DNA of 64,000 nucleotides from an uncultured Dehalococcoidia bacterium (GCA_903844845.1 CAIMVG010000008.1:12672-76671), one strand, 5' to 3'; positions 7,839 to 60,737 are shown, numbered from the stretch's first letter. Translations and numbers: made by a program. Notes: generated from the letters alone by a model not told the origin.

Positions 7839-8320
7839 AACTCAAGATAAACCCTAACTATATTGTCATCACAGGGTTCACAATCGGAATTGCTGCGGCG
7901 GCAGCCCAGGCTTTCTTTGATGTACAACCTCCGCAGGCATATGGAGTCTGTTTGATCGGTCATCCATCAATACTGGTCAAATGGTTTATGAACCACATCT
8001 TCGGAATGCATTTGCCAATAAGCACGGCATTTTTAGTTTATCCGTCTTTGCTGGTAGCAGGCATAACAGGTGGAGCTCTATTTTCATCTATAAAGAGCGG
8101 GGAATTCAAGACAACATTAAAGATGAAACCTGCCAGCACACGCAGCAAGTTCAATGCCATACTTTTTGGTTTTCTTGTGGCTAACTTTGGATTGATCGTC
8201 GGCGCCTGTCCCATACGAACCGCGCTCCTGGTAAGTTACGGAAGCGTATTAGGGGGCATAATGCTGGCAGCTATCATTTTTGGGGTTTTTCTGGCAACAC
8301 TCCGTTTACGTCGATCATAG
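7835..8320 (+). CDS. YeeE/YedE-family sulfur/selenium transport protein, N-terminal half of a split transporter
   Basis: Polytopic. Cys-containing motifs AYGVCLIGH and VGACPIRT. Confidence 0.7.
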   Translation: MKLKINPNYIVITGFTIGIAAAAAQAFFDVQPPQAYGVCLIGHPSILVKWFMNHIFGMHLPISTAFLVYPSLLVAGITGGALFSSIKSGEFKTTLKMKPASTRSKFNAILFGFLVANFGLIVGACPIRTALLVSYGSVLGGIMLAAIIFGVFLATLRLRRS

Positions 8321-8335
8321 AAAGGACCAATTATT

Positions 8336-8773
8336 ATGTTGGCTTTTATAGCGACTTTGGTGATAGGTTTGGTTCTGGGATATCTCGGGCAAAGGTCTCG
8401 TTTTTGCGCAGTAAGCGGTTTCCGGGATTGGTTTTTAATCCGTGATACTCGCCTGCTTAAAGGATATGGGGCGCTTTTAGCCGGCGGAGTGCTAGGGTAT
8501 GCATTTTTTAAACTTATAGGCGGGAAAATACTCAATTACCCCCTTGGAATGGATATAGGTACCGCAGGGGGAGCCGCAGTAATCGCCATTGCCGCAATCG
8601 GGATGGCATATTTTTCTACGCTGGCTGATGGCTGTCCATTCAGGCAACATGTAGCAGCAGCAACAGGCAGTACAACCAGCCTTTTATATTTGCTGGGTTT
8701 TTACACAGGCATAGTCTACTTTTTCCTGGTGACTACAAATATAGTGAGCATTATCTCGAAGTTAATAACCTGA
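8336..8773 (+). CDS. YeeE/YedE-family sulfur/selenium transport protein, C-terminal half
   Basis: RSRFCAVSGF and ADGCPFRQ motifs typical of the YeeE/YedE sulphur-transport domain. Polytopic. Confidence 0.75.
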   Translation: MLAFIATLVIGLVLGYLGQRSRFCAVSGFRDWFLIRDTRLLKGYGALLAGGVLGYAFFKLIGGKILNYPLGMDIGTAGGAAVIAIAAIGMAYFSTLADGCPFRQHVAAATGSTTSLLYLLGFYTGIVYFFLVTTNIVSIISKLIT

Positions 8774-8937
8774 CAATTTTACCCTGTAAATGCAATATCC
8801 AAAAGCGTTGACCGGGCTATTTAGCAGGTCAAGCGAGTTTAAACTACAAGGAAAAGGGCATCCCATTGAGGCCGGCGGCGATCCAGCCGCCATGAGGCAT
8901 TGTGGAAAGAATGCGCCAGGATGCGGCGGACCCTGCG

Positions 8938-10329
8938 TTATTCCCAGCCGAACGGCGGGAGATCCAGGTCCCAGAATTCATCAGGGTTTTTATTCAGGCC
9001 ATTTCCCATCAAGCCATCTAACATTTTGACAGCTTTGTCGAGAGACGGTGCGGTCGCGATTGCATTATTCAAGATATTCCTGAAAATGGTCCCGTTTATA
9101 CCCCGGGAAAGCGGGCAAACTGCGAAACAGGTACTACAGCCCTCGGAATAGCCCATGATCTTTATATTGGTTAAACACGCTGCTTCATCGCGATGCCAGC
9201 TCTTGATGCCTGTTTGCTGATAATCCCCCCGGATATTCCACGATGTTTCCGTGTCTTTGGGAATCGCCCCAGACGGGCAATGATCGGCGCATTTCTTACA
9301 TATGCGGCAAAAACGCATGACTCCGAAATCAACCGGTTTACCCGGAGCGAGCGGGAGGTCGGTGATAAGTTTGAACACCCTCTGTCTGACTCCATACACA
9401 GGGGTCACCATGTGCATCGTTCGGCTATGCTCTCCAAGTCCGGCCATAATACCGAACCCAACAGAGGAACCGAGGGAGTCATAAGGATTGGCTTCTCCCA
9501 AACCCATATAACCAAGCCCCCGAAGAAAAAGTTGCAACTGGCCCTGGATGATGCTTTTAAGGTTATATGCATTTTCGGTCGGCGCCATAATCATCTGCGT
9601 GGGGGCGCTTTGTACTAGCTGATCGGCCATGCGTATCGTGTAGACTATTACCCATCGTGCCTTCCTGGGTATGATCCGTTCGGTTTTTGTTTCCGACGCC
9701 TGTGTCGCATCCGAGAAGGTCAGCTTCAAGCCCTGCGACGCGCCGGTGCCTGTGTCATACGAATATACCAGCTTTTCCGTGGTAAGCGAGTCAAGTTCCA
9801 CGAAACCGACTTCGGCCGCCCCGTGAAAACGCATAAAAGCGCGAATCATCCTGGCGTTTTCCTCCGGTTTTCCTTCGTAGACGGGGACTCCGAGGTCCCC
9901 TGGTGTCTGGTTTGTCGTTGGCCCGATGAAGCTGGTCGGCGCGAAGTATGTCGCATTGACGAAAGCATCGTCTTTCAGAGTATAGCCAGGCGTATTTGCC
10001 TTGAGACGACTTAACCGGTTGTTTCTCTGGGCCTCCATGACGTGGAGATATTGTGAAGTTCCCAGGGCTTTCTGCAGGCCGCTGGCCCAGACTACCTTGC
10101 TGTAGTCGAAGCGGTTCATTGCAGTCCAGTCAATATCTACCGTCGGCTTTTCTACCTCTCGTATATAAGAGGGCCGCATGGAAACAGCCGCCGGGGATGC
10201 CATGATTTCGTCAAGGTCATGTACCGCCCGGGCAGGGAAAAGCACCGGCGCAGCACCGCATGCCAATGCTCCCAAACCGAGCGATTTGAGGAAATCCCGT
10301 CTGCTGATGCTCGAATGGTATTTATTCAA
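8938..10329 (-). CDS. rdhA: Reductive dehalogenase homologue, catalytic subunit (RdhA)
   Basis: Twin-arginine signal SRRDFLKSLGLGALACGA. C-terminal Fe-S motifs CRICKKCADHCP and CSTCFAVCP. 463 aa. Confidence 0.85.
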   Translation of the reverse strand: MNKYHSSISRRDFLKSLGLGALACGAAPVLFPARAVHDLDEIMASPAAVSMRPSYIREVEKPTVDIDWTAMNRFDYSKVVWASGLQKALGTSQYLHVMEAQRNNRLSRLKANTPGYTLKDDAFVNATYFAPTSFIGPTTNQTPGDLGVPVYEGKPEENARMIRAFMRFHGAAEVGFVELDSLTTEKLVYSYDTGTGASQGLKLTFSDATQASETKTERIIPRKARWVIVYTIRMADQLVQSAPTQMIMAPTENAYNLKSIIQGQLQLFLRGLGYMGLGEANPYDSLGSSVGFGIMAGLGEHSRTMHMVTPVYGVRQRVFKLITDLPLAPGKPVDFGVMRFCRICKKCADHCPSGAIPKDTETSWNIRGDYQQTGIKSWHRDEAACLTNIKIMGYSEGCSTCFAVCPLSRGINGTIFRNILNNAIATAPSLDKAVKMLDGLMGNGLNKNPDEFWDLDLPPFGWE

Positions 10330-11318: not shown

Positions 11319-11945
11319 TTATACCATTTTAGGGGGTAACGTCTTCCGGGCTAGAATCAAAGTGATATTTCCATCTGAAACTAGCGTGGATTTCAGCATA
11401 GTCAATCCGTTTTTATCCAATATACGCATCAACCCTCCGTTGTTCAAAAAACCTTTGAAATTACGGAAATGCGCGACTCCGGCTATTCGCTCAATGATAC
11501 GGATTAGGAAACCAGTCAGCCTTCGAGGTAAGGGGACGCTGTAATCCATGAAAACAAGAAATCCATCCGGGCAAGTTACTCGTTTCATCTCGCTTACAAT
11601 CGCATCCACCAACGTCAACTCCTTATCATGCAAGGCCAGGGAGACAGAGGTGAAATCGAAGCTAGCGTCATCAAAGGGCATATGGGATGCGTCCCCTAAT
11701 ATGAATGTTTCCGAGGCCGCATCAGAATGTGCATAATATCGACGCGCTAAGTCGAGCATATGCGGATCGATGTCCACTCCAATGGCTATGATCCCTTTGC
11801 GGAGGTATTCATATACTTGCGCCCCGGTGCCGCAGCACACGTCCAGCACGCGATCATCAGGACGCATCCCACCGAACTCCGGCAGAAGTTTTCGCGCATC
11901 CCTTAGAATCGGATCTATTATGGTGGCGTAGTTGATGTGTAACAA
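11319..11945 (-). CDS. Class I SAM-dependent methyltransferase
   Basis: Motif I VLDVCCGTGAQ. UbiE/Methyltransf_11-like length. Confidence 0.85.
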   Translation of the reverse strand: MLHINYATIIDPILRDARKLLPEFGGMRPDDRVLDVCCGTGAQVYEYLRKGIIAIGVDIDPHMLDLARRYYAHSDAASETFILGDASHMPFDDASFDFTSVSLALHDKELTLVDAIVSEMKRVTCPDGFLVFMDYSVPLPRRLTGFLIRIIERIAGVAHFRNFKGFLNNGGLMRILDKNGLTMLKSTLVSDGNITLILARKTLPPKMV

Positions 11946-12298: not shown

Positions 12299-12946
12299 TC
12301 AAGCTGTGGCCCTTGGAATTAATTCGACATGCCAGGTGTCACCCACCTTGGAACTACGAAAATTTAGCCCCTGTTTTCCGGCGAACTTACCGAGGTTTTC
12401 AACTTCAACATTGGTTTCTACTATCACTTCAAGCGTTTGGCCTCTCGCTTTGTTCAAGGCACGTTTGACCTGGTGTAGACTGTCCGGTACCGGCAGTCCT
12501 CGCGCCGGATCGATATGGGCACCGCGGGTATCCAGTATCCCGTTTTCCAGGTTGAGCGGGGTTCCCCGATATTCTTGCATCAGGCGTGTTTCGCCTTCCT
12601 TGAACCCCTCATCGGTTAAATCTCCTCTACCGAACAGCACACAATGGCATGAGCCGTGCTTTTGAATATCCTCTTGGGCAAATTTACAAGGGCACAGCAG
12701 CCGTTTATTTACCTCGGCATTTTCGCCAGGCTCGAAGCATGGGCAATAGCGTTTGCCAAACATACTTTCACTTTCTGCGATCCATATCTTCAGGTTGGTA
12801 TAAAACATCCAGTGCGGGTTTACCTTTAACCCTTTGGTAGCTGCATATTTCTTTATCCACACATCATGTTTCTTGATTTCCTTATGGTAGTCAATGTATC
12901 CGGAAAAGAACTCTTTCATCATGGGTGCCATTTCTTTTAATTTCAA
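12299..12946 (-). CDS. Ferredoxin:thioredoxin reductase catalytic-subunit-like protein fused to a Cys-less TusA-like domain
   Basis: CPC...CPC...CHC triad (RYCPCF, LLCPCKF, GSCHCVLF). C-terminal GLPVPDSLHQVKRAL...TLEVIVE resembles TusA without the CP cysteine. TTG start 7 nt after GGAGGAG. Confidence 0.75.
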   Translation of the reverse strand: MKLKEMAPMMKEFFSGYIDYHKEIKKHDVWIKKYAATKGLKVNPHWMFYTNLKIWIAESESMFGKRYCPCFEPGENAEVNKRLLCPCKFAQEDIQKHGSCHCVLFGRGDLTDEGFKEGETRLMQEYRGTPLNLENGILDTRGAHIDPARGLPVPDSLHQVKRALNKARGQTLEVIVETNVEVENLGKFAGKQGLNFRSSKVGDTWHVELIPRATA

Positions 12947-13634: not shown

Positions 13635-14324
13635 CTAACCTTTCAGGTAGAGGAAGCTGAGCTTGCCGAGTGATATTAGTACCCCAGCAACCACCAGCAA
13701 CCCTCCACTGCCAAAATAAATCCAGCGGCTATAGCGGCCGATGCGTTTTAGCATGGGTGTTAATCTGCTGAAAAATGCTCCTATCAATAAAAATGGCAGC
13801 CCCATTCCCAAGGAATAGGCCGCGAGGAGCAAAGCTCCTCGCCCTGCCGTACTGGAATTTAAGGCCAGGGTAAGCACGCTGCCCAGTAAGGGGCTCAGGC
13901 ATGGTGTCCAGGCCACGGTGAAAGCTGCTCCTACAATGAAAGAACGGATATAACCGCTCCTACGGCCCGTTTCCGGTGAAAGGCGTTTTTCGAAATTGAG
14001 CCACGGGATAAAACCAGCTCCCAGCATGAAAAGCCCAAAGAAGATTAACAGACCTCCAGATATCTTCTTCACCACCGCTGAATTTGGATTGATGCTAATG
14101 CCAGCCAGCCCAGCCAATGCGCCTGTTAAAGTGAACACCAGGCTCATTCCGACAACGAAACTGAGGGCGTGTAAGAAGAGAGGCCAGCGGCTTTCATCTT
14201 TCCTCTCCAAAACGTCGGGGCCGGCCAGACTGGCGAGGTATATCGGCACCATGGGGAGAACGCAAGGCGTTATAAAAGAGGCAATGCCTGCAGCGAATGC
14301 GGCCCAGACGGTGATGTTATCCAT
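13635..14324 (-). CDS. ccdA: Cytochrome c biogenesis / thiol-reductant transfer protein CcdA (DsbD family)
   Basis: Six-TM protein with the two conserved Cys in TPCVLPMVP and TPCLSPLL. Confidence 0.9.
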   Translation of the reverse strand: MDNITVWAAFAAGIASFITPCVLPMVPIYLASLAGPDVLERKDESRWPLFLHALSFVVGMSLVFTLTGALAGLAGISINPNSAVVKKISGGLLIFFGLFMLGAGFIPWLNFEKRLSPETGRRSGYIRSFIVGAAFTVAWTPCLSPLLGSVLTLALNSSTAGRGALLLAAYSLGMGLPFLLIGAFFSRLTPMLKRIGRYSRWIYFGSGGLLVVAGVLISLGKLSFLYLKG

Positions 14325-40767: not shown

Positions 40768-41535
40768 CTACTTGATAACCAGCACGGGGAAAAAGATCTG
40801 CCAGGCCAATAGCGCCTTGGCGGTCAGGCTGAGGATGATATACACCTTTTCACCGAAGAGATAATCGCGCCAAGGCCCCACCTTTTTGTACTGCAAGATC
40901 ATATTGACGGCGAAGCAGTTGAAGAAGATGAAGAGCGAGATGATGATGCCGTAGACGAATCCGGGAGGCGATACGTTCAGGCCCGGAGCGATAGTGTAGA
41001 TGACGACCGCCACCCAGGGGATGGCCCCGGCGAAGCAGCCCATCCAGAAGGGCAGAAGGTTTTTGTTGCCCGGCTTCTCATATTTCTCCTGCAGAGCGCC
41101 AAAGAGTATCATGCTGGCGTTGACTCCGAAGATGCCCAGCAGGGCGGCGATATCGCTGATGCCCACGATCTGGGAGATGAGCACTATCATCAAAGACGAA
41201 CTGAAGAAATACTCTATCCAGCGCCCGTAGTTGCGGCTCTCCAGCAGGTTTCGCTTGTACCAGGGGAAAACCCAGGGAGAGGCGATGCTCAATAAGGCCA
41301 GGGCCGATATGGTCAGGAAGGCGAAAACGCCCCAGCCGGTGGCGATATTGAATAACTGGTGAAGCGCAGGAGCAGTGCCGGGAGGCCCGGCCATGAAGGT
41401 GGCGGTCACCGGCAGGGAGAAATTGTTGGTGAGTACGGCGATCATGACCGCTTGAACGGCGAGTATCAAACCGACCACGATGTTCCAGACACGCAACTTC
41501 TTGACTTGCTTTTCTACAGATTGATCAACATCCAT
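40768..41535 (-). CDS. Heliorhodopsin
   Basis: Collinear with heliorhodopsin 48C12 as I remember it: RWIEYFFSSS (counter-ion Glu), FGVNASMILFGALQEKY, LLPFWMGC, PGFVYGIIISLF, and the Schiff-base Lys in ILSLTAKALLAWQIF. ATG at 41535 is 6 nt after AAGGAGGG. Confidence 0.9.
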   Translation of the reverse strand: MDVDQSVEKQVKKLRVWNIVVGLILAVQAVMIAVLTNNFSLPVTATFMAGPPGTAPALHQLFNIATGWGVFAFLTISALALLSIASPWVFPWYKRNLLESRNYGRWIEYFFSSSLMIVLISQIVGISDIAALLGIFGVNASMILFGALQEKYEKPGNKNLLPFWMGCFAGAIPWVAVVIYTIAPGLNVSPPGFVYGIIISLFIFFNCFAVNMILQYKKVGPWRDYLFGEKVYIILSLTAKALLAWQIFFPVLVIK

Positions 41536-41591
41536 ACTTTTCCCTCCTTTTGACGAAACTCTACCACACATTGAAACATTTTATATCGGAA

Positions 41592-44283: not shown

Positions 44284-45630
44284 ATGGCAAAACGTTCATA
44301 CCTGATCACCAGAAGGGACTTTTTAAAAGCCATGGCGGCTGCGGCAGTTGCAGCTGCTGCAGGGGGAAGCCTGACGTTTCAGGGATCCTGTAAAAAAGCC
44401 CCGGCCATCCCCAAGGGCCTGGAAAAAATCGACCACTTCATATTCATCATGCAGGAGAACCAGAGTTTCGACCACTACTTCGGCACTTACCCCGGCGCCG
44501 ACGGCCCCCCTCCCGGCACCGCACTCCTCGATCCTACCGACAACACCATGGTTCCCTTTTACCACCTGACCTCTGACGTAGATTTTGATGCGCCGCATGA
44601 TTGGTTCAACGCCCAGGCGGACATCAATGGCGGCAAGATGGACGGTTTCCTGGCCCAGGCTTACACTCGGTATGCTCTGACAGTTCCTTCCTACAGCACT
44701 CAACCAGGGTACAATCCCAAGGAAATCATGGGATATTACGACGGCAGCGACATCCCCAACTTCTGGAACTACGCGCGCCTTTACACGCTTCAGGACCATA
44801 TGTTCGAATCGGTTGCGGCCTACAGCCTGCCTTCACACCTTTACATGATGGCGGCCCAGGCAGGAGGCTACCTGGGGACACCGCAGCCTTATCCCACAGA
44901 GTTCGATTTCCCCGAGATAACAGAACTTCTGGCGAATGAGAATATTTCGTGGAATTATTACGTGACATCAGGCAAGAGCCTCGACAGCCAGGGCCAGGCC
45001 ATCGGCTCAGCAGCAGACCAGGCGAACGACCCCGACCAGTTCACGTTGTGGAACCCTCTGCCCGCGTTCCCCAAAGTCCAGAACGACGACAGCCAGAGGG
45101 TGCGGATGGTCGACACCGCACAGTTCTATCTCGATGCCAAGGCCGGGACGCTGCCTTCAGTAAGCTGGATTTGCCCATTCTTCCTGAATCCGCTCAGCGA
45201 CCATCCGGCTTTCAAGGGCGGCACCCGCAACTGCATGGCCTATGTCACCGGATTAATAAACGCGGTGCAGCAGAGCCCCAACTGGGAGTCCAGCGCCATT
45301 TTCGTCTCTTGGGACGATTGGGGCGGCTATTACGACCACGTGCCGCCACCCAAAGTTGACATCTACGGGTACGGCCTCAGGGTGCCGAGCTTCGTCGTCA
45401 GCCCGTACGCCAAACAGGGTTATATAGACAAAAAGGTTTATTCCTTCGATTCCTGGCTTAAAACGATCGAACAACGCTGGGGCATCGCCTCGATGACAAA
45501 ACGCGACCAGAATGCCCTCGACATGATGGACTGTTTCGACTTCACCCAGCTGCCCCGCTCACCCGTCATCTTCGACCCGACGACAAAGGGAACGCCTTAC
45601 CCTTGCCCGCTGCAAACGATAAAACACTGA
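44284..45630 (+). CDS. Tat-exported phosphoesterase family protein (phospholipase C / acid phosphatase AcpA-like)
   Basis: TRRDFLKAMAAAAV Tat signal. IDHFIFIMQENQSFDHYFGTYPG. Confidence 0.85.
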   Translation: MAKRSYLITRRDFLKAMAAAAVAAAAGGSLTFQGSCKKAPAIPKGLEKIDHFIFIMQENQSFDHYFGTYPGADGPPPGTALLDPTDNTMVPFYHLTSDVDFDAPHDWFNAQADINGGKMDGFLAQAYTRYALTVPSYSTQPGYNPKEIMGYYDGSDIPNFWNYARLYTLQDHMFESVAAYSLPSHLYMMAAQAGGYLGTPQPYPTEFDFPEITELLANENISWNYYVTSGKSLDSQGQAIGSAADQANDPDQFTLWNPLPAFPKVQNDDSQRVRMVDTAQFYLDAKAGTLPSVSWICPFFLNPLSDHPAFKGGTRNCMAYVTGLINAVQQSPNWESSAIFVSWDDWGGYYDHVPPPKVDIYGYGLRVPSFVVSPYAKQGYIDKKVYSFDSWLKTIEQRWGIASMTKRDQNALDMMDCFDFTQLPRSPVIFDPTTKGTPYPCPLQTIKH

Positions 45631-47503: not shown

Positions 47504-48214
47504 ATGAAACTCGTCCAAAACAAATGGCTGTTAACCGCCGCCCTGGCCCTGGTACTGGTTGTTACTATTTTGCCCGCCTGTTCCAAATCTGACACCGTTA
47601 CCGTGACCGGCGCGAACGCCACAGTCACCGTCACCGCCACCGGCGACGTTCAACCCACCGAAGCCAATCCCGTGGTATTCGATCCCGCAAAACAAGAATT
47701 ACGCCTGGCTGCCAAAGTCAATGGCGTGGCCTTCACCCAACCCACGTGGCATGCCGTCGTATACACCGGCGGCAAGGCGGCCGGAGCCGCCCTTTTCCAG
47801 GCCTTCATCACACCTGACCAGTTCTATGCGTTCCTCACCTACTTCGGCGGAATCCCAGGCAATAACATGCCGGCACCCACCGACAACTACAACGATACCT
47901 ACGTAAAAGGTTCCAATGTATCAATCAGCGTAACATGGGCCGGCGCTGCCAAGACTTATGCTCTTAACGACGTGGTCAAGAATCCGGCTACCAAAGCCAT
48001 CCAGATGAAATTCGGCGGCAACCTTGCCGTCAACCAGGGTGCAGGTACCGGCTGCATCGCCTGCTTCTACAGCTGCCCCATCGGCATCGTCAGCAACGCA
48101 TCCTATAACGGTACAGACCTGAAAGGACAATCAACGGCTGGGTTCCTTGGCAACAGTACCATCTTACCCAAGGACGGTTCCATCGTCGTTCTCACCTTCA
48201 AAGTAACTGCCTAG
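47504..48214 (+). CDS. Lipoprotein with CxxCxxxC motif (possibly YdjY-like)
   Basis: AGGAGGA RBS. Lipobox ILPAC. GTGCIACFYSCPIG near the C-terminus. The YdjY similarity comes from memory of the family name only. Confidence 0.6.
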   Translation: MKLVQNKWLLTAALALVLVVTILPACSKSDTVTVTGANATVTVTATGDVQPTEANPVVFDPAKQELRLAAKVNGVAFTQPTWHAVVYTGGKAAGAALFQAFITPDQFYAFLTYFGGIPGNNMPAPTDNYNDTYVKGSNVSISVTWAGAAKTYALNDVVKNPATKAIQMKFGGNLAVNQGAGTGCIACFYSCPIGIVSNASYNGTDLKGQSTAGFLGNSTILPKDGSIVVLTFKVTA

Positions 48215-48243
48215 CCTCCATTTTTCTCCGTAAAATAAGGAAA

Positions 48244-48270
48244 TAGCAGCCCGCCTGAGGCGGGCTGCTA
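48244..48270 (+). terminator. Hairpin after the lipoprotein gene
   Basis: TAGCAGCCCGC-CTGAG-GCGGGCTGCTA, an 11-bp stem. Confidence 0.5.
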
Positions 48271-48292
48271 AATCCCTTAAAAGGACTTTCAA

Positions 48293-48925
48293 ATGTCGGA
48301 AGACGCAATTGCAGTCGGCCGTAAACTTCAGGATTACCTGGGCATGCCCGACCGCCCGGTCGGAGTTAAAGTTCTGCGTTTCGGGGAATTGCCGGACACC
48401 TCCCTTTTCGACAAGCTGCCGGCCCGCGCGCCGTTTTGCCGCTATGTCTCTGAGGCCGCCAAAGGCAAGAACTTTATCATGGCGCTGAACGACCTCAAGT
48501 GCAATAACGCGGAACTCACGCTGGGTTTACGCGAACCGCACTACGGCGAAGTAGAACTGCGCATCCCCGGCAAGGTAGCCGCACTGCGCATCGGCCCGCT
48601 GGAAGGGTCGGACGTGGTCATGATGGTGCTGCAGCCGGGGCATGTGATGACGGCATCCCTGATTATCGAGGACATCCAGATGCGTTTCCGGCGCAACCGT
48701 GCGGTGTGCGGAGACAGTATGACCGAGGTTTTCAACAGCGGTAAGCCCCGCATCACCTTCCTGTGCGTCGGCTCGCGCACATCGGGCGGTCTCAATAACG
48801 ACGAAATGGTCTTATCGTTGCCTTATTCGCAATTTATGGAACTCCCGTCTAAAATGAGCAAACTGGCCCAGATGAGCCGGAAAGCGCAGGACAGCCTGAC
48901 GCACCGGCTGGCCAAAATACATTAG
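48293..48925 (+). CDS. DUF169 protein
   Basis: PVGVKVL...APFCRYV...LKCNNAELTLGL pattern of DUF169. Confidence 0.7.
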   Translation: MSEDAIAVGRKLQDYLGMPDRPVGVKVLRFGELPDTSLFDKLPARAPFCRYVSEAAKGKNFIMALNDLKCNNAELTLGLREPHYGEVELRIPGKVAALRIGPLEGSDVVMMVLQPGHVMTASLIIEDIQMRFRRNRAVCGDSMTEVFNSGKPRITFLCVGSRTSGGLNNDEMVLSLPYSQFMELPSKMSKLAQMSRKAQDSLTHRLAKIH

Positions 48926-48942
48926 GATTGCAGCAGCCCTGA

Positions 48943-50517
48943 ATGAACAATATTACCTGCGATAACAAGGCAGACTCCCGCCGCCGCCTGGGGCAGGGGA
49001 GCATATTATATTCCCCGGCACTGGTGCAGCACGAGAGGGACAGCGTATTCCTGCTAATCGATCCGGCCTCTCCCAACTGGGCCAGCGCCAACAAATTGGG
49101 ATCGGCCATCATCCGCAGCTGCGACGCGAAACACACCTTGCGTGAGATCGCAGAGCGCGCCAGCCTGGAGTACGGACTGCCGGAACACACCGTAGTTTCT
49201 TTTATCGAGCAGGCAGCGCAGGCCGGCTTTGTGTCGGAAAGCCCGGATACCTCCCCGGCTTATGCCGGCCGCGCCGGCGTCATCGCCCCGTCAGCCCTTG
49301 AAGAATTATGGATCTATACCAACACCTCCTGCCCTTTGCGCTGCCGCCACTGCCTGGTGGACGGCGGGGAGGGATCCGCATCGATTATGGGTGCGGACGA
49401 AATTATAAAACTGGTGGATGACGCCGTCGCACTGGGCTGCGGGCGTATCTATTTCACCGGCGGCGAGCCCTTCATGCGGGGAGATATCCTCAAGCTCGCC
49501 GATTATGTCACGGCACGCGCCCAGCTCGTCATACTGACCAGCGGGGTGCTTATCAACGACGAACTGGCTGCCAGTCTGAAATCGCTGTCCCGCGGCAACC
49601 TGATAATACAGGTCAGCCTGGAGGGGCCCGACACGGAAACCAACGACGCCATACGCGGCACAGGCAGTTTTGCGCGGGCGGTGAGCGGAATCACGTCACT
49701 CATCCGCACCGGAATCGTGCCGGTAGTGACCACAACACTAACGCGGCTGAACTATTTGAAAGCCCCGGAAACGACGCGGTTCCTGGCGACACTGGGAGTC
49801 AAAGACCACCATATCCTCTGGCTGCACCAGTGCGGGCGCATGCGCACGTCCAACGCCGAACTGATCCTCAGCGGGGAGGAAATAGCGCATATCATGGGCC
49901 TGCTGCGTGAAGCCGCCCTGGAAACGGGCATGGTAGTAGACAATCTGGAATCGCTGGCGGCGCGCATCAAGGGCCGAGGCCACAAGAACGACCTTTGCAA
50001 TTCCTGCTACGGAGTGCTGGCGGTGGGCACGGAGGGGCATGTTTATCCCTGTGCCTCGCTGGTAGGCACGCCGGAGTTCGACTGCGGTTCGGTCAAAGAC
50101 GAGGGGCTGAAGAATATCTGGCTCAGGTCGCCTAAAACCAACTGGATCCGCAGCAACTCGGTGCAGAAGAAAGCGGGCTGCAGTTCTTGCTATCTGAAAT
50201 TCTTCTGCGGCGGAGGGTGCTTCGCGCAGTCCTATTTCAATCATGAGATGACAACCGGTTCAGGCTGCATCATGGCCGGCGACCCTTATTGCGAGGTGTA
50301 TCGCTCGCAACTGCTGGAAGCCATGTGGCAATCGGCCATGCCGCCAGAGACAGAGAAGACCGAAGACCTGCCTTTGCTTTACAGGGTGATGGAAGCGAAA
50401 CTGCCCGGGTGCGCCGGGGGGAATTACACGACCCTCGATGCGGCCCACGACGTCGGCACTTACCACTGTTCGTGCGTGCTGGCGATGGACGTCGCCAATG
50501 ATGGAGGAGGAAGTTAA
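48943..50517 (+). CDS. Radical SAM / SPASM-domain enzyme with N-terminal PqqD-like (RRE) domain
   Basis: CPLRCRHC (CxxxCxxC). Auxiliary-cluster Cys CNSCYGV...YPCASL...CSSCYLKFFCGGGC. The N-terminal 100 aa (LIDPASPNWASANKLGSAIIRSCDAKHTLREIAERASLEYGLPEHTVVSFIEQAAQAGFV) are PqqD-like. Confidence 0.85.
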   Translation: MNNITCDNKADSRRRLGQGSILYSPALVQHERDSVFLLIDPASPNWASANKLGSAIIRSCDAKHTLREIAERASLEYGLPEHTVVSFIEQAAQAGFVSESPDTSPAYAGRAGVIAPSALEELWIYTNTSCPLRCRHCLVDGGEGSASIMGADEIIKLVDDAVALGCGRIYFTGGEPFMRGDILKLADYVTARAQLVILTSGVLINDELAASLKSLSRGNLIIQVSLEGPDTETNDAIRGTGSFARAVSGITSLIRTGIVPVVTTTLTRLNYLKAPETTRFLATLGVKDHHILWLHQCGRMRTSNAELILSGEEIAHIMGLLREAALETGMVVDNLESLAARIKGRGHKNDLCNSCYGVLAVGTEGHVYPCASLVGTPEFDCGSVKDEGLKNIWLRSPKTNWIRSNSVQKKAGCSSCYLKFFCGGGCFAQSYFNHEMTTGSGCIMAGDPYCEVYRSQLLEAMWQSAMPPETEKTEDLPLLYRVMEAKLPGCAGGNYTTLDAAHDVGTYHCSCVLAMDVANDGGGS

Positions 50518-51326
50518 TGGCATCAGACGAAGAGAAAACCCCGGCAACGGAACCAGAGGCGACGGATAACAAAGCCAGATTCGATTATGGAAAGTGGCTG
50601 CGCAACATCGCGATAATCGGGGTGCTGGCAGGCATTTATCTGATCGTTTATTACAACAATGCCGAATTTAGATTCAATATACACCAGATCGCCGATATCC
50701 TGTCGCACCTGGACCTGCAGCGCCTGAAGTTTTACCTGCTGCATTTCGGCGTATGGGCCCCGGTCATATCCGCCCTCATCATGATGTTCCAATCTGTCGC
50801 CGCGCCACTGCCCGCCTTCGTGGTAACGCTGACCAACGGCCTGCTCTTCGGCGCATTCTGGGGCACGCTGCTTTCCTGGAGTTCCTCGATGGCCGGTGCG
50901 GTTTTGTGCTTTTATATCGCACGCTGGGCCGGCCGCCCCGCCGCCGAACGTATCGTCAGCAAACGCGCGCTCAATTATGTCGACCGGTTTTTTAAACGCT
51001 ACGGCAACAATGCGATCATACTCACCAGGCTCATGCCGTTCGTCTCTTTCGATGCCGTCAGCTATGCGGCAGGCCTTACCTCTATGTCATTCTGGGGATT
51101 CTTCTGGGCCAGCGCCATCGGGGAACTGCCTGCCACGATAGTATATTCCGTATTCGGCCAGAATATGCCCACAATCATCAAGTTCTGGTTCTGGGCCATC
51201 CTCGGGGTATTATCCCTTGTCGTGCTGACGCTAACAGTGAAGAAAGCCATCGATACCCGCATAGCCAACAAACAGAAAAAAGAGACAACTTCAGCCGGCG
51301 TGACCGAGACAGGCCCCGCGGCCTGA
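50517..51326 (+). CDS. TVP38/TMEM64 (DedA-superfamily, SNARE-associated) membrane protein
   Basis: ARWAGRPAAERIVSKRALNYVDRFFKRYGNNAIILTRLMPFVSFDAVSYAAGLT. The start overlaps the rSAM stop (TAATG). Confidence 0.85.
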   Translation: MASDEEKTPATEPEATDNKARFDYGKWLRNIAIIGVLAGIYLIVYYNNAEFRFNIHQIADILSHLDLQRLKFYLLHFGVWAPVISALIMMFQSVAAPLPAFVVTLTNGLLFGAFWGTLLSWSSSMAGAVLCFYIARWAGRPAAERIVSKRALNYVDRFFKRYGNNAIILTRLMPFVSFDAVSYAAGLTSMSFWGFFWASAIGELPATIVYSVFGQNMPTIIKFWFWAILGVLSLVVLTLTVKKAIDTRIANKQKKETTSAGVTETGPAA

Positions 51327-51345
51327 AACTCAAAATGATACAGGC

Positions 51346-52146
51346 ATGATTCATGTGTCAAACAGTAAAAGCGGGGGGGAGGCAGACCATCCCCGGGCCG
51401 ACGAGTCGAGGTTTCATTTCAGGTTAAACCTTTCTGTTCTGGCCGGTTTCACCCTGGCTTTTGTATTGCTTTACTTTTTGTGGGGGGATTTCGGCTGGGG
51501 AGTGCGCCACGTGACCTCCGAAATCGTGCACGGCGACCTTCAAGGCCTTAAAACTTACCTGCTGTCCTTCGGCGCCTGGGCACCCGTGGTTGCCGGACTC
51601 GTCATGGTGCTCCAGGCCGTGGTGGCGCCCCTGCCCGCCTTTGTGCCCGCCATGGCCAACGGACTCCTGTTCGGTGCCTTCTGGGGGACGCTGCTTACAT
51701 GGGCCACCTCCATAACCGGCGGCCTGATATGCTTTTACATAGCCCGTGCGCTGGGACGCCCGGCCGTGGAAAGGCTGGTGAGCCGCCGCGCCATGAACTC
51801 GGTGGATCGCTTCTTCAAACGCTACGGGAACAACTCCGTCCTGGTGGCGAGGCTTATCCCACTCTTCTCTTTCAGCGCCATCAGCTATGTCTCGGGGGTG
51901 ACCGCCATCGATTTTTGGGGCTATTTTTGGGCGACCGCCATCGGTATCCTGCCGGGCACTATAGTCTTCTGCGTGCTGGGCAACAATATGACCAGCCTCG
52001 TGCGCTTTGCCTGGTACGGCGTGACCGGCATCGCAGCCCTCATCGTGCTTGGTTTCAGCGTTAAACAAGCTTTGAACCGGCGATTGGCCGACCGTGAAAA
52101 AGGTGCGGAAGTTTCGCTCGAAAACAAACCCGCCCGGAAATCATAG
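51346..52146 (+). CDS. TVP38/TMEM64 (DedA-superfamily) membrane protein, paralogue of the upstream gene
   Basis: ARALGRPAVERLVSRRAMNSVDRFFKRYGNNSVLVARLIPLFSFSAISYVSGVT. Collinear with the previous gene. Confidence 0.85.
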   Translation: MIHVSNSKSGGEADHPRADESRFHFRLNLSVLAGFTLAFVLLYFLWGDFGWGVRHVTSEIVHGDLQGLKTYLLSFGAWAPVVAGLVMVLQAVVAPLPAFVPAMANGLLFGAFWGTLLTWATSITGGLICFYIARALGRPAVERLVSRRAMNSVDRFFKRYGNNSVLVARLIPLFSFSAISYVSGVTAIDFWGYFWATAIGILPGTIVFCVLGNNMTSLVRFAWYGVTGIAALIVLGFSVKQALNRRLADREKGAEVSLENKPARKS

Positions 52147-52163
52147 ACAAGTAGTGCTGCGCA

Positions 52164-52841
52164 ATGCTTATCAGCGTGATTATCCCCGTTCTCAACGAAG
52201 CCAGGACACTGGCCAAAACCCTGAAAACAGTTGATGCCTTGCCCGGCGACAAAGAGGTCATCGTGGTGGACGGGGGCAGTTCCGACAAGACCGTTGCGGT
52301 AGCCGAAAAATACTCCCGCGTACTCAACAGCGACCGGGGGCGGGCCATCCAAATGAACGCCGGAGCGGCGGCGGGCAGAGGGGAGGTTCTCCTCTTTTTA
52401 CACGCCGACACGCTTCTGCCCCCGGATGCGCTGCAAGCGATCGAAACCAGCCTTAAAGACGAATTCGTGGCCGGCGGCCGTTTCCGGTTAAAACTCAGCA
52501 ACCCGGGCTGGCGTTACCGCCTCGTGGGGTGGAGCATCAATACCCGCGACCGGATCCTGGGCGGGTTCACCGGCGACCAGGCGATTTTCGTGCGCAAAGA
52601 CGTGTTCAATGCCATCGGAGGATACCCGCAGATACCTCTTATGGAAGATCTGGAGTTCGGGAGGAGGATGCAGCAGGCGGGCGGGGTTTTACGCCTCCGG
52701 CAGAGGGTCATCACTTCCTCCCGGCGCTGGGAAAAACACGGAGTGCTGAAAACCGTATTCCTCATGGGGATGCTGCGCACGCTTTATTACGTGAATTTCC
52801 CGCCTTCCAGACTCCGCCGCTGGTATAATGACGCGAGATGA
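52164..52841 (+). CDS. Family-2 glycosyltransferase (rSAM/selenodomain-associated transferase-2-like)
   Basis: ISVIIPVLNE...VIVVDGGSSDKT...RAIQMNAGA...LLFLHADTLLP. Confidence 0.8.
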   Translation: MLISVIIPVLNEARTLAKTLKTVDALPGDKEVIVVDGGSSDKTVAVAEKYSRVLNSDRGRAIQMNAGAAAGRGEVLLFLHADTLLPPDALQAIETSLKDEFVAGGRFRLKLSNPGWRYRLVGWSINTRDRILGGFTGDQAIFVRKDVFNAIGGYPQIPLMEDLEFGRRMQQAGGVLRLRQRVITSSRRWEKHGVLKTVFLMGMLRTLYYVNFPPSRLRRWYNDAR

Positions 52842-53542
52842 ATAATGCGGCCCTGGTATTGATGGCGCGCGCGCCCGAAGAAGGCAAAGTGAAGACCCGC
52901 CTGCAGCCGGCCCTCACTCCCGCACAGTGCACCAGCCTTTACAAGGCGTTTCTGGGGGATGCTATCGCCCTGACCGCATACATACAAGAGTTTACCCCTT
53001 TCATGGCCTATACGCCGGTCTCGAGCGCTGCCATTTTTGAACAGCTCGCGCCCCCCGGCATGGAACTCCTTCCTCAAAGGGGCGACGGCCTCGGCGCTGT
53101 GATGGACAACATTATAAACGGCCTGCTCTCGCGGGGTTTCCCCCGGGTCGTTCTTATCGGCAGCGACATCCCGGCCCTTCAACCGCAGACGGTGCGGCGT
53201 TCCCTGGCCCTGCTGGAAAAATCCGATGTATGCCTGGGCCCGTCCCGCGACGGCGGCTACTACCTCATCGGAGCCCAAAAGCAGGTCAGCGCGCTATTTC
53301 AAGACGTGCCATGGAGCACTCCTCGCGTATTAAAGGTGACGCTCGACAGGGCGAAACAGGCGGGTTTGAGCGTCGAACTGCTGGAGGAGATGGGAGACGT
53401 GGACGTTCCGAAAAATCTCGAAATGCTCTCAAACGAAATCGCGGCCCTGCGCAGGTCAAAGGGCAGCCGCATACCGGAGAAAACAGAGACCTGGCTCAAA
53501 AATAACTACCTTGACTTTAAAGAAGGGCCGGGCTCTCTTTGA
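52838..53542 (+). CDS. DUF2064 nucleotidyl/glycosyl-transferase-like protein (rSAM/selenodomain-associated transferase-1-like)
   Basis: LVLMARAPEEGKVKTRL...LYKAFLGD...VLIGSDIP...GPSRDGGYYLIG. 4-nt overlaps on both sides. Confidence 0.8.
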   Translation: MNNAALVLMARAPEEGKVKTRLQPALTPAQCTSLYKAFLGDAIALTAYIQEFTPFMAYTPVSSAAIFEQLAPPGMELLPQRGDGLGAVMDNIINGLLSRGFPRVVLIGSDIPALQPQTVRRSLALLEKSDVCLGPSRDGGYYLIGAQKQVSALFQDVPWSTPRVLKVTLDRAKQAGLSVELLEEMGDVDVPKNLEMLSNEIAALRRSKGSRIPEKTETWLKNNYLDFKEGPGSL

Positions 53543-54123
53543 ACCTGGCCCTGTGGCTGACCCTATCGAGGTTCGTGATGCTGCCGCTGGCGGTTTTGCC
53601 CTTAGCGTTGGGGTGGCGCGACGGCGGCTTCATCGCGGCCGTCGTGACACAACTGGCCGGGTTGACCGATTTCGCCGACGGCATCGTAGCGCGAAAAATG
53701 GGGCAAACTACCCCACTGGGCACCAACCTGGATTTTTTCAGCGACAAAGTTTACGTGGGAGCCATGCTGGTGACGCTGGCTTCGCTCGGCTCGGTCCCCG
53801 CGTGGGTGCCCATAGTCATCATCGCACGTGAAGCGGCCGTGACGGGGCTGCGCTTCAAGCGATTCGGCTGGCTCACCCCATCGCCGGACCTGCCGGGCAA
53901 GCTAAAAACGATGGTGTCATTTGCGGCCATCATGTGGGTATCGATGCGGCATGATTTGAATTCCCTGGGCGCGATGTCCTCCCTAAATACCCGTTTCAAT
54001 GTCGCGGGGATACTATCGGCGGCCCCGTGGGTCGTCTATGCCGCAGTGGCGCTCACCATTATTTCGGGCATCAATTATTTCATCCAGTTCGGGGACAGGA
54101 CAAAAGGCGTGGCTCATAAATAA
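53539..54123 (+). CDS. CDP-alcohol phosphatidyltransferase
   Basis: DFADGIVARKMGQTTPLGTNLDFFSDKV matches D-x2-DG-x2-AR-x8-G-x3-D-x3-D. Polytopic. TTG start. Confidence 0.85.
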   Translation: MNLALWLTLSRFVMLPLAVLPLALGWRDGGFIAAVVTQLAGLTDFADGIVARKMGQTTPLGTNLDFFSDKVYVGAMLVTLASLGSVPAWVPIVIIAREAAVTGLRFKRFGWLTPSPDLPGKLKTMVSFAAIMWVSMRHDLNSLGAMSSLNTRFNVAGILSAAPWVVYAAVALTIISGINYFIQFGDRTKGVAHK

Positions 54124-54140
54124 ACGAGAAAGGGAAACAA

Positions 54141-54617
54141 ATGTTTAAATCGATGCGCTATTTCATACTCGTGTCGCAGGTACTTGCAGCTTTACTTTTT
54201 ACGATCATGCCGGGATGTAAAAGCCAGGCGACCGACTCGAACCTGGGGTTCCAGGTGGCACCGCGGGCCGAGGACGCCGTAATTTCACTGTACCTGATGC
54301 CGCGCGATACCGCCGGGAACATCATCAGCGAGAACGGGATGCTGAGCGTCAAGATGTGGGAAAAAACGAGTTCCAACCCGCCTGCCACCGGCGCGCTCAT
54401 CGGTAAATGGGACAACCTCGACCTGAGCGATCTTACATTTTCGACCGGTAAAGGAACCCTGGTAAACCTGGCGCCCAACGACGCCTTCATGGGCAAGACG
54501 GGACAGGTGGCCTACATCGAATTAAATATAACCGGCAAGGGGAATGCCGGCCCCGCGACAGGCATCGTCATTTTGGGAGACCTGCCGGCGTGCTGCGGTT
54601 CGGGACAGGCCGGTTAG
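54141..54617 (+). CDS. Lipoprotein with C-terminal CCGSG tail, unknown function
   Basis: Lipobox IMPGC. Ends ...GDLPACCGSGQAG. Lies 17 nt after the transferase gene. Confidence 0.6.
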   Translation: MFKSMRYFILVSQVLAALLFTIMPGCKSQATDSNLGFQVAPRAEDAVISLYLMPRDTAGNIISENGMLSVKMWEKTSSNPPATGALIGKWDNLDLSDLTFSTGKGTLVNLAPNDAFMGKTGQVAYIELNITGKGNAGPATGIVILGDLPACCGSGQAG

Positions 54618-54674
54618 GATGTGACGATCACGTCAGCATGCTAAAATAGTTGAAAATCACCTTACGGAGGCCAC

Positions 54675-55190
54675 ATGGACTTTTCCGAAATCATCAAAAA
54701 ACGCTATAGCGCCCGCGCATACCGCCCTGACGCCGTGGAGCAAGAGAAATTGGATGCCGTTCTGGAAGCGGCCCGGGTGGCGCCGACCGCTGCCAGCCGC
54801 CAGCCTTTCAAGATAATCGTAATCCACACCAAAGGGCGGCAGGAAGAGCTCAGCCGCCTTTATCCTGCACGCTGGTTCACCCAGGCGCCACTGCTTATCT
54901 GCATCTGTGTTACACCTGATAGCGCCTGGCTGAGGCGCGACCATAAAAACTACGCCGACGTGGACGCTGCCATCGTTATGGACCACCTGATCCTGGCGGC
55001 CACCGAACAGGGCCTCGGCACCTGCTGGGTGGCGGCTTTCGACCCGGCGGCGGCACGGGAGATACTGGCATTGCCCGCCGGCGTCGAACCCATAGTTTTC
55101 ACACCATTGGGCTATGCCGCCGATTCTGCCGGAACCAAATTACGACGCCCCCTGGCCGATCTTGTTTGTTATGAAAAGTGGCAGGGATAA
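54675..55190 (+). CDS. Nitroreductase-family flavoprotein
   Basis: IIKKRYSARAYRPD...LEAARVAPTAASRQPF. Confidence 0.85.
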   Translation: MDFSEIIKKRYSARAYRPDAVEQEKLDAVLEAARVAPTAASRQPFKIIVIHTKGRQEELSRLYPARWFTQAPLLICICVTPDSAWLRRDHKNYADVDAAIVMDHLILAATEQGLGTCWVAAFDPAAAREILALPAGVEPIVFTPLGYAADSAGTKLRRPLADLVCYEKWQG

Positions 55191-59966: not shown

Positions 59967-60737
59967 TTACCTTTCGGATAACGGTTTCCGGCCTATCAAC
60001 AAATACGAAAGAGGGATCCTGTTGCGGTCTATCTGACCGAATAACCCGGAAAGGTCTGCGTTGAACTCTTTCAGCTTACGGATATCGATGCCGCTCCCGA
60101 TGACGGCATTGATAATCATGTCGAACGTTTGCGAATAACTGAAAAATGTTTTCGAAGGGTAATTCTCCCCGGCTATATATTTCATCCCGTGGTTCTCAAT
60201 CCAGGGCTCGGTTTTAAAGTAGGAATTTACCGCTCGGTCGGGTGTGTTTTCCTCATAGTTATCTTCGCCTTTGGCGGCGAACATATTGGCCGCCGGGTGC
60301 ATCTCGTGGATCACCAGGGTGCCCCCCGGTTTGAGGCAATCCGAAACCTTCCGGAAGAAAGCGGGGAGGTCAGCAAACCAGCACAACGCACCGATGGTGA
60401 TGAATATGAAATCAAATGTATCGTTGAATTTCGGGCCTATTTCCAGGATATCCGAAGCCGCGAAACGGCAATTCAACCCGAGCTCGACCGCTTTCTTGTT
60501 CGCATAAGCGATCATGTTTTCCGCGATATCGAAGCCTGTTCCTGAAGCCGCACCAAGCTGTACGAGCGCCCGCAACTCCCTGCCGTCGTTACAGCAGAAT
60601 TGTGCGATATCTTTCCCCGCAATATCCAGCTCTTTCAATTCTGCAGTCAATTCGGGTTTAAGCACGGGTGCCGTACCCTTTCCCCAGTCTGCCGAACGGC
60701 GGGCAAAAGCTTCTTCCCATGCAGCCTTGTTTTCCAT
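59967..60737 (-). CDS. Class I SAM-dependent methyltransferase
   Basis: 256-aa ORF. DIAQFCCNDG... and GGTLVIHEM are motif I and post-I-like regions. Confidence 0.7.
   Translation of the reverse strand: MENKAAWEEAFARRSADWGKGTAPVLKPELTAELKELDIAGKDIAQFCCNDGRELRALVQLGAASGTGFDIAENMIAYANKKAVELGLNCRFAASDILEIGPKFNDTFDFIFITIGALCWFADLPAFFRKVSDCLKPGGTLVIHEMHPAANMFAAKGEDNYEENTPDRAVNSYFKTEPWIENHGMKYIAGENYPSKTFFSYSQTFDMIINAVIGSGIDIRKLKEFNADLSGLFGQIDRNRIPLSYLLIGRKPLSER

Follow-up and report, generated by a model that had tools for sequence, protein, structure and literature searches.

A run of ten co-directional open reading frames (ORFs), located at 47.5-55.2 kb on the + strand of a 64,000-nucleotide stretch of DNA (the window) from an uncultured Dehalococcoidia bacterium (GCA_903844845.1 CAIMVG010000008.1:12672-76671), contains an operon organized around an enzyme of the radical S-adenosylmethionine (SAM) class, in which a PqqD-like domain of the RRE type (recognition element of ribosomally synthesized and post-translationally modified peptides, RiPPs) precedes a radical SAM and a SPASM domain. 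The accumulated data largely show that this operon represents the form that a multi-phylum pathway takes in the Chloroflexota/Dehalococcoidia; in this pathway, the PqqD-rSAM-SPASM enzyme (hereafter the rSAM) stands in the place of ArsS, beside a family 2 glycosyltransferase (GT2) of the TIGR04283 family, a DUF2064 transferase of the TIGR04282 family, and proteins of the TVP38/DedA type. The operon probably makes an unusual sugar lipid of the arsenic type (or of the sulfur/selenium type) by an undescribed route. Arsenic is the leading candidate because relatives of the rSAM are fused to the arsenite methyltransferase ArsM; a sulfur, selenium or thio-arsenical product is also possible in the ArsM-less branch to which the window belongs. 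The operon is most fittingly classed with the ArsM/ArsS-type organoarsenical pathway, as a variant that differs by its radical SAM enzyme and by two additions, a phospholipid module and a YdjY/YdjZ module.

Among environmental organoarsenicals, arsenosugars and arsenosugar phospholipids take a major place. To our knowledge, only ArsM and ArsS have been experimentally assigned, and we know of no genes for the conversion of the adenosyl-arsenical to sugars and lipids. In this respect, the operon offers a compact candidate set for the later arsenolipid steps, comprising a nucleotidyltransferase, a GT2, a PgsA-like transferase and flippase-type proteins. In addition, the rSAM belongs to an unstudied family that seems to stand in for ArsS in anaerobes, among them the Dehalococcoidia, Nitrospirota, anammox bacteria, Acidobacteriota, Elusimicrobiota, Gemmatimonadota and Desulfobacterota, and that is of relevance to how arsenic is cycled in aquifers, sediments and paddy soils.

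Fusion to ArsM and Association with the ArsS Accessory Genes

The surroundings of the rSAM homologues were compared at 80 genome loci, one genome per species, which are numbered here with an L (L001, etc.); the neighbourhood counts rest on contigs of metagenome-assembled genomes (MAGs), many of them truncated. At 68 of 82 loci, the C-terminus of the rSAM is extended by a fused methyltransferase domain which scores 252 bits against the arsenite-methyltransferase model NF008823 (cut-off 263), can be aligned with 5EVJ and 4FS8, two crystal structures of ArsM (E 1e-37), and possesses all four cysteine motifs of the As(III) site, namely CC/CP, YGCGxP, SNCVxNL and CxxGA. Other fusion partners consist of TusA in the Chloroflexia, ArsM plus DUF5714 in the Desulfobacterota, and a UbiG-like methyltransferase in a few cases. 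The triple rSAM-ArsM-DUF5714 fusions of the Desulfobacterota (L079-L084) reach ~1,040-1,100 aa, e.g., at L083:9941-13255. The initial annotation of the window had stressed that the radical SAM partner differs from ArsS. The difference is real, TIGR04167 (ArsS) being absent among the NCBIfam matches of the window rSAM, and the link to arsenic or another metalloid is nevertheless kept, since most lineages of the family show the fusion with ArsM.

When all ORFs of the loci were clustered without bias, DUF2064, VTT (TVP38/DedA-superfamily) proteins and TIGR04283-like GT2 proved the most recurrent neighbours, at 16 loci each, followed by PHO4/PiT transporters (12 loci), Pyr_redox_2 oxidoreductases (10), DUF547 proteins (9) and a B12-binding radical SAM protein (8, exclusively from Nitrospirota). 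Both the VTT and the DUF2064 genes lie at most 7 kb from the rSAM gene at 15 of the 16 loci that bear them. At about 20 loci, rSAM::ArsM adjoins the TIGR04283/TIGR04282/VTT genes by which ArsS is flanked elsewhere. At L045, from the Elusimicrobia, the genes located 3' of rSAM::ArsM exceed the cut-offs of both TIGR04283 and TIGR04282, and at L060, from the Longimicrobiales, a phosphorylase of 5'-methylthioadenosine (MTA), MTAP (522 bits, cut-off 437), adjoins a VTT-GT2-DUF2064-VTT-rSAM::ArsM array. The PiT transporters that recur beside the fusions would be compatible with a deliberate uptake of arsenate.

A true ArsS (TIGR04167, 373 bits, cut-off 300) occurs at L087, an actinobacterial MAG sampled via a TIGR04283 homologue, where it is flanked by a GT2 of the TIGR04283 family, an LPG_synthase_TM protein, a C_GCAxxG_C_C protein and an MTAP-like phosphorylase. 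Because the GT2 family, LPG_synthase_TM and the MTAP-like phosphorylase accompany either ArsS or the SPASM-type enzyme, the latter looks like a non-orthologous replacement of ArsS. In a neighbour-joining tree rooted with generic SPASM enzymes, a rough tree built without bootstrap, the ArsM-less Chloroflexota clade is nested among the ArsM-fused lineages, and the fusion has, for this reason, probably been secondarily lost or unlinked in the Chloroflexota.

Two further arrangements were observed around the fusions. Upstream of the PiT-rSAM::ArsM cluster of L045, a MbnB/TglH/ChrH (DUF692) and DUF2063 gene pair (L045:5781-7482) probably forms a separate cluster of the RiPP type. In the Nitrospirota, the B12-binding radical SAM gene directly follows rSAM::ArsM (L002, L008-L013, L017) and GT2/DUF2064 are usually not nearby; these loci may be devoted to a different downstream chemistry.

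The Radical SAM Enzyme

The rSAM family spans more than 10 phyla. Homologues were recognized in Dehalococcoidia, Chloroflexia, Nitrospirota, anammox Planctomycetota, Acidobacteriota, Elusimicrobiota, Gemmatimonadota, Desulfobacterota, Myxococcota, Spirochaetia and one archaeon. An exhaustive HMMER search at E ≤ 1e-30 yielded only 271 clusters at 50% identity, and the family is therefore of modest size; the Dehalococcoidia clade forms a single one of these clusters. Nothing describing the family, nor the function of the GT2/DUF2064 pair, was found in the literature searched, and the enzyme reaches no curated NCBIfam model, its best match being MftC with 126 bits for a cut-off of 265. The borderline score of its PqqD domain rises to 35.5 bits in its relatives.

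Outside the radical SAM motif CPLRCRHC, which was correctly read at the outset, several blocks are conserved. The SPASM cysteines C352, C370, C413, C416, C422, C426 and C450 are invariant in the family alignment and C355 is nearly so; this full cysteine set implies that the enzyme would carry two auxiliary Fe-S clusters. A DPxxPNW motif at aa 40-46, with D40, P41, P44, N45 and W46 invariant in alignment A1, is found in many, not all, of the distant family members. Finally, a C-terminal motif H-x-x-C-V-L-[SA], which corresponds to HCSC in the window rSAM, occurs family-wide: its second cysteine was aligned in all 20 of the 20 sampled members, in the form C-V-L/I/M/V, its histidine varies in L031 and L036, and its first cysteine is found in the Chloroflexota, Nitrospirota and Desulfobacterota clades. 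The HCSC motif is a candidate thiolate site for a heteroatom substrate. In the AlphaFold2 model of the enzyme (mean predicted local distance difference test, pLDDT, 82; predicted template modelling score, pTM, 0.83), residues 489-524 show a pLDDT below 55, consistent with a flexible C-terminal tail.

The best structural match of this model is CteB (5WGG), with a template modelling (TM) score of 0.72 and an alignment that covers the full length and takes in the RRE. With the architecture and the predicted fold of the thioether-forming maturases, with MftC as its best NCBIfam match and a GT2 that distantly matches MftF, the operon could make a RiPP or, as the initial annotation had proposed, a mycofactocin-like cofactor, the RRE-SPASM enzyme modifying a precursor encoded elsewhere and GT2/DUF2064 decorating the product. 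The unexplained RRE domain keeps this idea alive, yet it has become very improbable. The exhaustive ORF list contains no free-standing ORF of at least 20 aa in the gaps between the operon genes, as had been noted from the start, and upon clustering of the 80 loci no small ORF was shared near the rSAM by more than two closely related loci. MftF, like MftC, is matched far below its cut-off (52 vs 280 bits), no other Mft genes occur among the cluster proteins, and the fusion partners of the family are ArsM, TusA and DUF5714, not peptidases or transporters. A small protein of L003, h101, was considered as a precursor and discarded, since it is a membrane protein whose homology is to a rhodanese N-terminus.

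Conservation of the Gene Order

An rSAM protein of identical sequence occurs in 114 blocks of a public collection, and the gene order at the three of these 114 blocks displayed is YdjY, DUF169, rSAM, VTT and VTT. The core gene order recurs in Chloroflexota at 50-85% identity as YdjY/rhodanese, DUF169, PqqD-rSAM-SPASM, VTT, VTT or LPG_synthase_TM, GT2 and DUF2064, with or without the PgsA-like transferase; in other Chloroflexota, the identity amounts to 50-64%. Depending on the locus, the set varies slightly. In L001 (59%) and L003 (51%), it consists of (TusA), DUF169, rhodanese(s), rSAM, VTT, LPG_synthase_TM, GT2, DUF2064 and CDP-alcohol transferase; L014 shows the same genes in a slightly changed order, and L088 associates YdjY, DUF169, rSAM, VTT, LPG_synthase_TM, GT2 and DUF2064. 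Owing to this conservation, which extends far beyond chance and is not confined to one genome, a fortuitous adjacency of the operon genes is rejected.

The conserved core corresponds to most of the operon of eight to nine genes that had been delimited at first; its last two members, the terminal 158-aa lipoprotein and the nitroreductase, fall outside the conserved set. Neither was found beside the rSAM at any other locus by tblastn over 84 loci, and by the same search the phospholipase C (PLC)-like phosphoesterase located upstream was also rejected as a conserved member.

Transferases and Membrane Proteins of the Operon

The GT2 and DUF2064 proteins had been attributed to families that accompany a radical SAM protein, and both exceed the corresponding cut-offs (Table 1). 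The GT2 has more than 7,900 homologues, and its AlphaFold2 model (pLDDT 92) matches generic GT-A enzymes in a fold search. The DUF2064 protein matches PDB 3CGX, a 'putative nucleotide-diphospho-sugar transferase' (E 7e-23). The CDP-alcohol transferase, which is confined to the Chloroflexota branch (the window, L001, L003/L004 and L014), scores 102 bits against TIGR00560 pgsA (cut-off 109.1), finds its sole PDB match in PgsA (7DRJ, E 5e-17), and possesses an intact D-x2-D-G-x2-A-R-x8-G-x3-D-x3-D motif, which reads DFADGIVAR-x8-G-x3-D-x3-D. The two VTT proteins are paralogues, as previously proposed, with 45% identity; in L001, L003 and L088, the second VTT slot is held by an MprF-flippase-like LPG_synthase_TM protein. 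Both score ~41.5 bits against the UptA model NF052604 (cut-off 250), a score that does not qualify them as undecaprenyl-phosphate flippases of the UptA type.

These proteins also lend themselves to a metalloid-independent pathway for an envelope glycolipid or a polyprenyl-phosphate sugar, in which an ordinary sugar phosphate, activated by DUF2064, would be loaded by the GT2 on undecaprenyl phosphate or a glycerolipid, the DedA proteins would flip or recycle the carrier, and the rSAM would tailor the sugar nucleotide by a BlsE-like decarboxylation, a dehydration or an epimerisation. BlsE, a radical SAM enzyme acting on sugar nucleotides, does occur among the best sequence and structure matches of the rSAM, the GT2 resembles the polyprenyl-phosphate glycosyltransferases PcManGT, DPMS and ArnC, and the flippase UptA is itself a DedA protein, weak as the match is. 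However, such a pathway explains neither the predominance of ArsM fusions with intact As(III) cysteines (68/82), nor the recurrence of PiT transporter and MTAP neighbours, nor the presence of the same GT2 family beside ArsS, and we consider it quite unlikely.

Proposed Pathway

Arsenosugar phospholipids consist of phosphatidylglycerol ribosylated on the head-group glycerol, and it is for this reason that the enzyme set of the operon suits the following model. The best overall explanation is an arsenosugar-phospholipid-like lipid, formed via a heteroatom adduct made by the rSAM, an explanation to which we give, tentatively, a little less than an even chance. It retains the outline of the polar-lipid head group, activated, glycosylated and flipped, that the initial annotation had put forward, and we infer all of its steps by analogy with ArsS. 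The latter adenosylates dimethylarsenite, DMAs(III), to 5'-deoxy-5'-dimethylarsinoyl-adenosine, DDMAA (PMC13598754).

The rSAM would cleave SAM and couple the resulting 5'-deoxyadenosyl radical to a trivalent heteroatom, thiolate-bound on the C-terminal HCxC tail, and the SPASM clusters would take the electron back. An enzyme of the MTA-phosphorylase type, for which some genomes have a gene within the cluster and which the window organism would recruit from its housekeeping enzymes, would strip off the adenine to give a 5-substituted ribose-1-phosphate, which the CofC-like DUF2064 protein would convert to a nucleoside diphosphate (NDP)-sugar. The GT2 would then move the modified ribose onto a glycerol-type acceptor, and the PgsA-like transferase would supply or attach the phosphatidyl-glycerol(phosphate) to give the arsenosugar-phospholipid-like lipid. 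Two YdjZ-like VTT proteins, replaced in sister loci by one VTT and one MprF-flippase-like protein, would carry the lipid to the outer leaflet, where the YdjY Cys-motif lipoprotein, or the Cys/selenocysteine (Sec) rhodanese lipoproteins of the sister loci, would work. DUF169 would be a cytoplasmic accessory protein, possibly a carrier of the heteroatom.

Several points weigh against this explanation. A tblastn search of the 64-kb window with the ArsM domain returned no ArsM, only a generic methyltransferase (E 0.017), and no ArsM occurs in any of the Chloroflexota-branch clusters compared; this branch carries instead genes that point to sulfur/selenium trafficking, i.e., TusA and periplasmic rhodaneses. 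It is by gene context and naming that TIGR04283 and TIGR04282 are tied to arsenosugar synthesis, the fold search performed with the GT2 does not point to an acceptor, and the model does not account for the ligand of the RRE domain. Furthermore, no phosphorylase gene occurs among the operon genes or their annotated neighbours, and the CDP-alcohol transferase is absent from L088. The two class I methyltransferases of the window, 11319-11945 (-) and 59967-60737 (-), were examined as ArsM candidates and rejected as generic.

Genes Suggestive of Sulfur or Selenium Trafficking in the Chloroflexota Branch

In the Chloroflexia L018 (9908-12073), L019 and L021, TusA is fused C-terminally to the rSAM (Pfam TusA, 47.8 bits), and in L003 it stands alone upstream. 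YdjY precedes DUF169-rSAM in the window, L005 and L088, its place being taken in L001, L003, L014 and L076 by lipoproteins of the rhodanese family, located beside DUF169 and the rSAM. The active-site loop of these rhodaneses, CQTGQR, is of the sulfurtransferase type. In L001, both rhodanese genes (7735-8700 and 8795-9990) contain an in-frame TGA at the catalytic cysteine ('HAY*QTGQRS' and 'VVY*QGGIRS') and run ~45 codons beyond it to the true stop, whereas the L003 rhodanese (8558-9541) reads 'WAYCQTGQRS'. Because the TGA falls exactly at the position of the catalytic cysteine of L003, the L001 lipoproteins are probably selenoproteins that have been truncated by the gene callers.

A DUF169 gene immediately preceding that of the rSAM or those of the rhodaneses is seen in the Chloroflexota branch only (L001, L003, L005, L014, L076 and L088, in addition to the window), with 21 close homologues in a homologue search, and neither DUF169 nor YdjY has a solved homologue detectable by sequence. 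The literature holds weak hints on DUF169, consisting of a STRING link to YedE and a TauE neighbour in Desulfovibrio. In a Binatia MAG (L086:7452-9678), two GT2 genes, including one of the TIGR04283 type, come immediately after a YdjY-domain gene; no rSAM lies nearby, and the link between YdjY and this GT2 family thus exists without the rSAM.

On the same scaffold, the heteroatom could accordingly be sulfur or selenium, with YdjY or the rhodaneses outside and TusA or DUF169 inside feeding the rSAM, which would form a 5'-thio- or 5'-seleno-adenosine and ultimately a thio- or seleno-sugar lipid. Besides the TusA fusions, the sulfurtransferase-type loop and its probably Sec-encoded version in L001, the lack of ArsM in the window and the pairing of YdjY/YdjZ in E. 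coli with YnjE, a periplasmic rhodanese, and the AhpD-like YnjA fit such a product. We nevertheless regard it, though a serious alternative, as unlikely, since every deeper branch of the rSAM family possesses a canonical ArsM, the GT2 and DUF2064 proteins belong to families that accompany ArsS, and the window cluster itself is devoid of rhodanese and TusA; moreover, MTA already provides cells with a 5'-thio-ribose chemistry, so that a radical route seems needless. As a variant, the relay could thiolate an arsenical to yield a thio-arsenosugar lipid, which would reconcile both sets of clues. The TusA fusions and the Sec-rhodaneses suggest that some members of the rSAM family may have been adapted to handle sulfur or selenium.

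Layout of the Operon and Other Genes of the Window

The gene list, the strand and the tight packing initially described were reproduced by the ORF listing, and the family calls were borne out by Pfam and NCBIfam profile searches (Table 1). Successive genes from DUF169 onwards are separated by gaps of 17, 19, 17 and 17 nt or overlap by 1, 4 and 4 nt before the wider gap that precedes the nitroreductase, and 78 nt separate the YdjY-like gene from that of DUF169. The YdjY-like lipoprotein, listed as a 236-aa protein (PF27149) in public gene calls, possesses a lipobox, LPAC, and ends in a region with a CxxCxxxC motif (C-terminal, GCIACFYSC).

Table 1. Positions of the operon genes and associated features, numbered from the first nucleotide of the window.
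Feature	Position	Strand	Evidence or remark
YdjY-domain lipoprotein	47504..48214	+	ORF opens at TTG 47465, probable start ATG 47504; NF040466 101 bits, cut-off 50
G+C-rich palindromic hairpin, 12 bp	48244..48270	.	Between the ydjY-like and DUF169 genes
DUF169 protein, four cysteines	48293..48925	+	PF02596 83 bits
PqqD-like (RRE) + radical SAM + SPASM enzyme, 524 aa	48943..50517	+	Pfam domain matches; Radical_SAM 74 bits
PqqD/RRE-like N-terminal domain, aa 38-97	49054..49233	+	Pfam PqqD 23.5 bits, cut-off 23.4
Radical SAM cluster motif CPLRCRHC (C130, C134, C137)	49330..49353	+	Invariant in family alignment
SPASM region, full cysteine set	49996..50292	+	Pfam SPASM 33 bits
C-terminal HCSC motif (H508, C509, C511)	50464..50475	+	Family alignment
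TVP38/VTT (DedA-superfamily) membrane protein, YdjZ-like, copy 1	50517..51326	+	VTT_dom 104 bits
TVP38/VTT membrane protein, YdjZ-like, copy 2	51346..52146	+	VTT_dom 94 bits
GT2 glycosyltransferase, TIGR04283 ('arsenosugar biosynthesis glycosyltransferase')	52164..52841	+	259 bits, cut-off 182
DUF2064 / TIGR04282 CofC-like (nucleotidyl)transferase	52838..53542	+	185 bits, cut-off 134
PgsA-like CDP-alcohol phosphatidyltransferase	53539..54123	+	PF01066 (CDP-OH_P_transf) 95 bits
158-aa lipoprotein ending ...LPACCGSGQAG	54141..54617	+	17 nt downstream of CDP-alcohol transferase
Nitroreductase-family protein	54675..55190	+	PF00881 93 bits; 57-nt gap upstream

A scan for promoters and terminators gave the same counts as shuffled sequence, the hairpin upstream of the DUF169 gene alone being conspicuous; no T-run follows it 3' on the + strand, and it may represent a candidate attenuator or RNA-stability element. 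The G+C content amounts to 57-59% across the operon (window 48001-54000), compared with ~48-55% in the flanks, and this rise, together with the 49% identity to YdjZ from E. coli, suggests that at least part of the cluster was horizontally acquired.

The 158-aa lipoprotein is confined to one population: it matches no Pfam or NCBIfam family, its 90% cluster holds 4 members, and it is probably a strain-level addition. Its C-terminal tail resembles the GGCGG swinging-arm carrier motif of SoxY. The membership of the nitroreductase in the operon is doubtful. About 2 kb upstream, a Tat-signal phosphoesterase/phospholipase-C-like protein (44284-45630 (+), PF04185, 228 bits) is followed by several small lipoproteins; neither the phosphoesterase nor these lipoproteins are kept near the rSAM at other loci. 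Elsewhere in the window, a reductive dehalogenase (8938-10329 (-), TIGR02486, 237 bits) is accompanied by two proteins with a weak likeness to selenoprotein families, FtrB-like (12299-12946) and DsbD/TsoB-like (13635-14324), and a heliorhodopsin gene (40768-41571 (-), NF038020, 314 bits) is located on the same dehalogenase-carrying fragment. Protein matches, together with this dehalogenase, assign the window to the Dehalococcoidales.

Comparison with Known Systems

The RiPP maturases of the CteB type (5WGG/5WHY; SkfB, SuiB, PqqE) share with the rSAM the order RRE, radical SAM, SPASM and the full SPASM cysteines. They represent its best sequence and structure matches, yet the identity amounts to 15-21%, and the rSAM differs from them by the lack of any precursor peptide found, by its fusions with ArsM or TusA, and by an extra conserved Cys-bearing C-terminal tail. 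The mycofactocin system likewise associates a radical SAM-SPASM enzyme with RRE function and a GT2, and the TIGRFAMs name of TIGR04283 is 'glyco_like_mftF'; unlike this system, the cluster proteins include no MftA, MftB, MftD or MftE, and MftC and MftF are reached with less than half of their cut-off scores. The PgsA/MprF-type modification of phosphatidylglycerol has in common with the operon a PgsA-like transferase, which in the window lies just under the PgsA cut-off, and, in the sister loci, the MprF-flippase-like LPG_synthase_TM; in contrast to MprF, an aminoacyl-transferase domain is lacking.

With the ArsM/ArsS arsenosugar pathway of the Synechocystis type, the operon shares GT2 TIGR04283 and DUF2064 TIGR04282, both above cut-off. 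In addition, ArsS clusters and SPASM-type loci share accessory types, namely LPG_synthase_TM or VTT and an MTAP-like phosphorylase, and the coupling of radical SAM to ArsM that characterizes the ArsS pathway takes the form of a gene fusion in the relatives of the window rSAM. Unlike ArsS, the window enzyme possesses neither the DUF3641 Cys/Sec domain nor a TIGR04167 match and is built as PqqD-rSAM-SPASM with a C-terminal HxxCVL tail; the cluster lacks ArsM and contains in addition the PgsA-like transferase, DUF169 and YdjY.

The likeness to ydjX-ydjY-ydjZ of E. coli, which had been suspected, is stronger than claimed: besides the match of the window lipoprotein to the YdjY domain model, E. coli YdjY is 37% identical to it (E 7e-46) and YdjZ shows 49% identity with both VTT proteins (copy 1, E 8e-58). 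The E. coli locus ydjX-ydjY-ydjZ-ynjABCD-ynjE/ynjF also holds a periplasmic rhodanese (ynjE), to which the rhodaneses of the sister loci L001, L003 and L076 are homologous, and an adjacent CDP-alcohol transferase (ynjF), which is barely similar to the PgsA-like transferase of the window (E 0.009). It differs by the absence of rSAM, GT2 and DUF2064 and by the presence of an ABC transporter and of the AhpD-like YnjA; YnjA, YnjBCD and YnjE have no specific match in the window. No published function for ydjXYZ was found in the literature searched, and the operon provides YdjY and YdjZ with a first functional context. A bolder proposal, which we consider somewhat unlikely, would make PqqD-rSAM-SPASM-HxxCVL a second, independently evolved radical SAM enzyme forming C-As bonds in anaerobes of more than 10 phyla, with the substrate held on its own Cys tail, the operon, by virtue of its PgsA-like transferase and flippase-type proteins, the first route to an arsenosugar-phospholipid-like lipid to be defined genetically, and the ydjXYZ-ynj locus of E. 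coli a remnant of the same membrane module.

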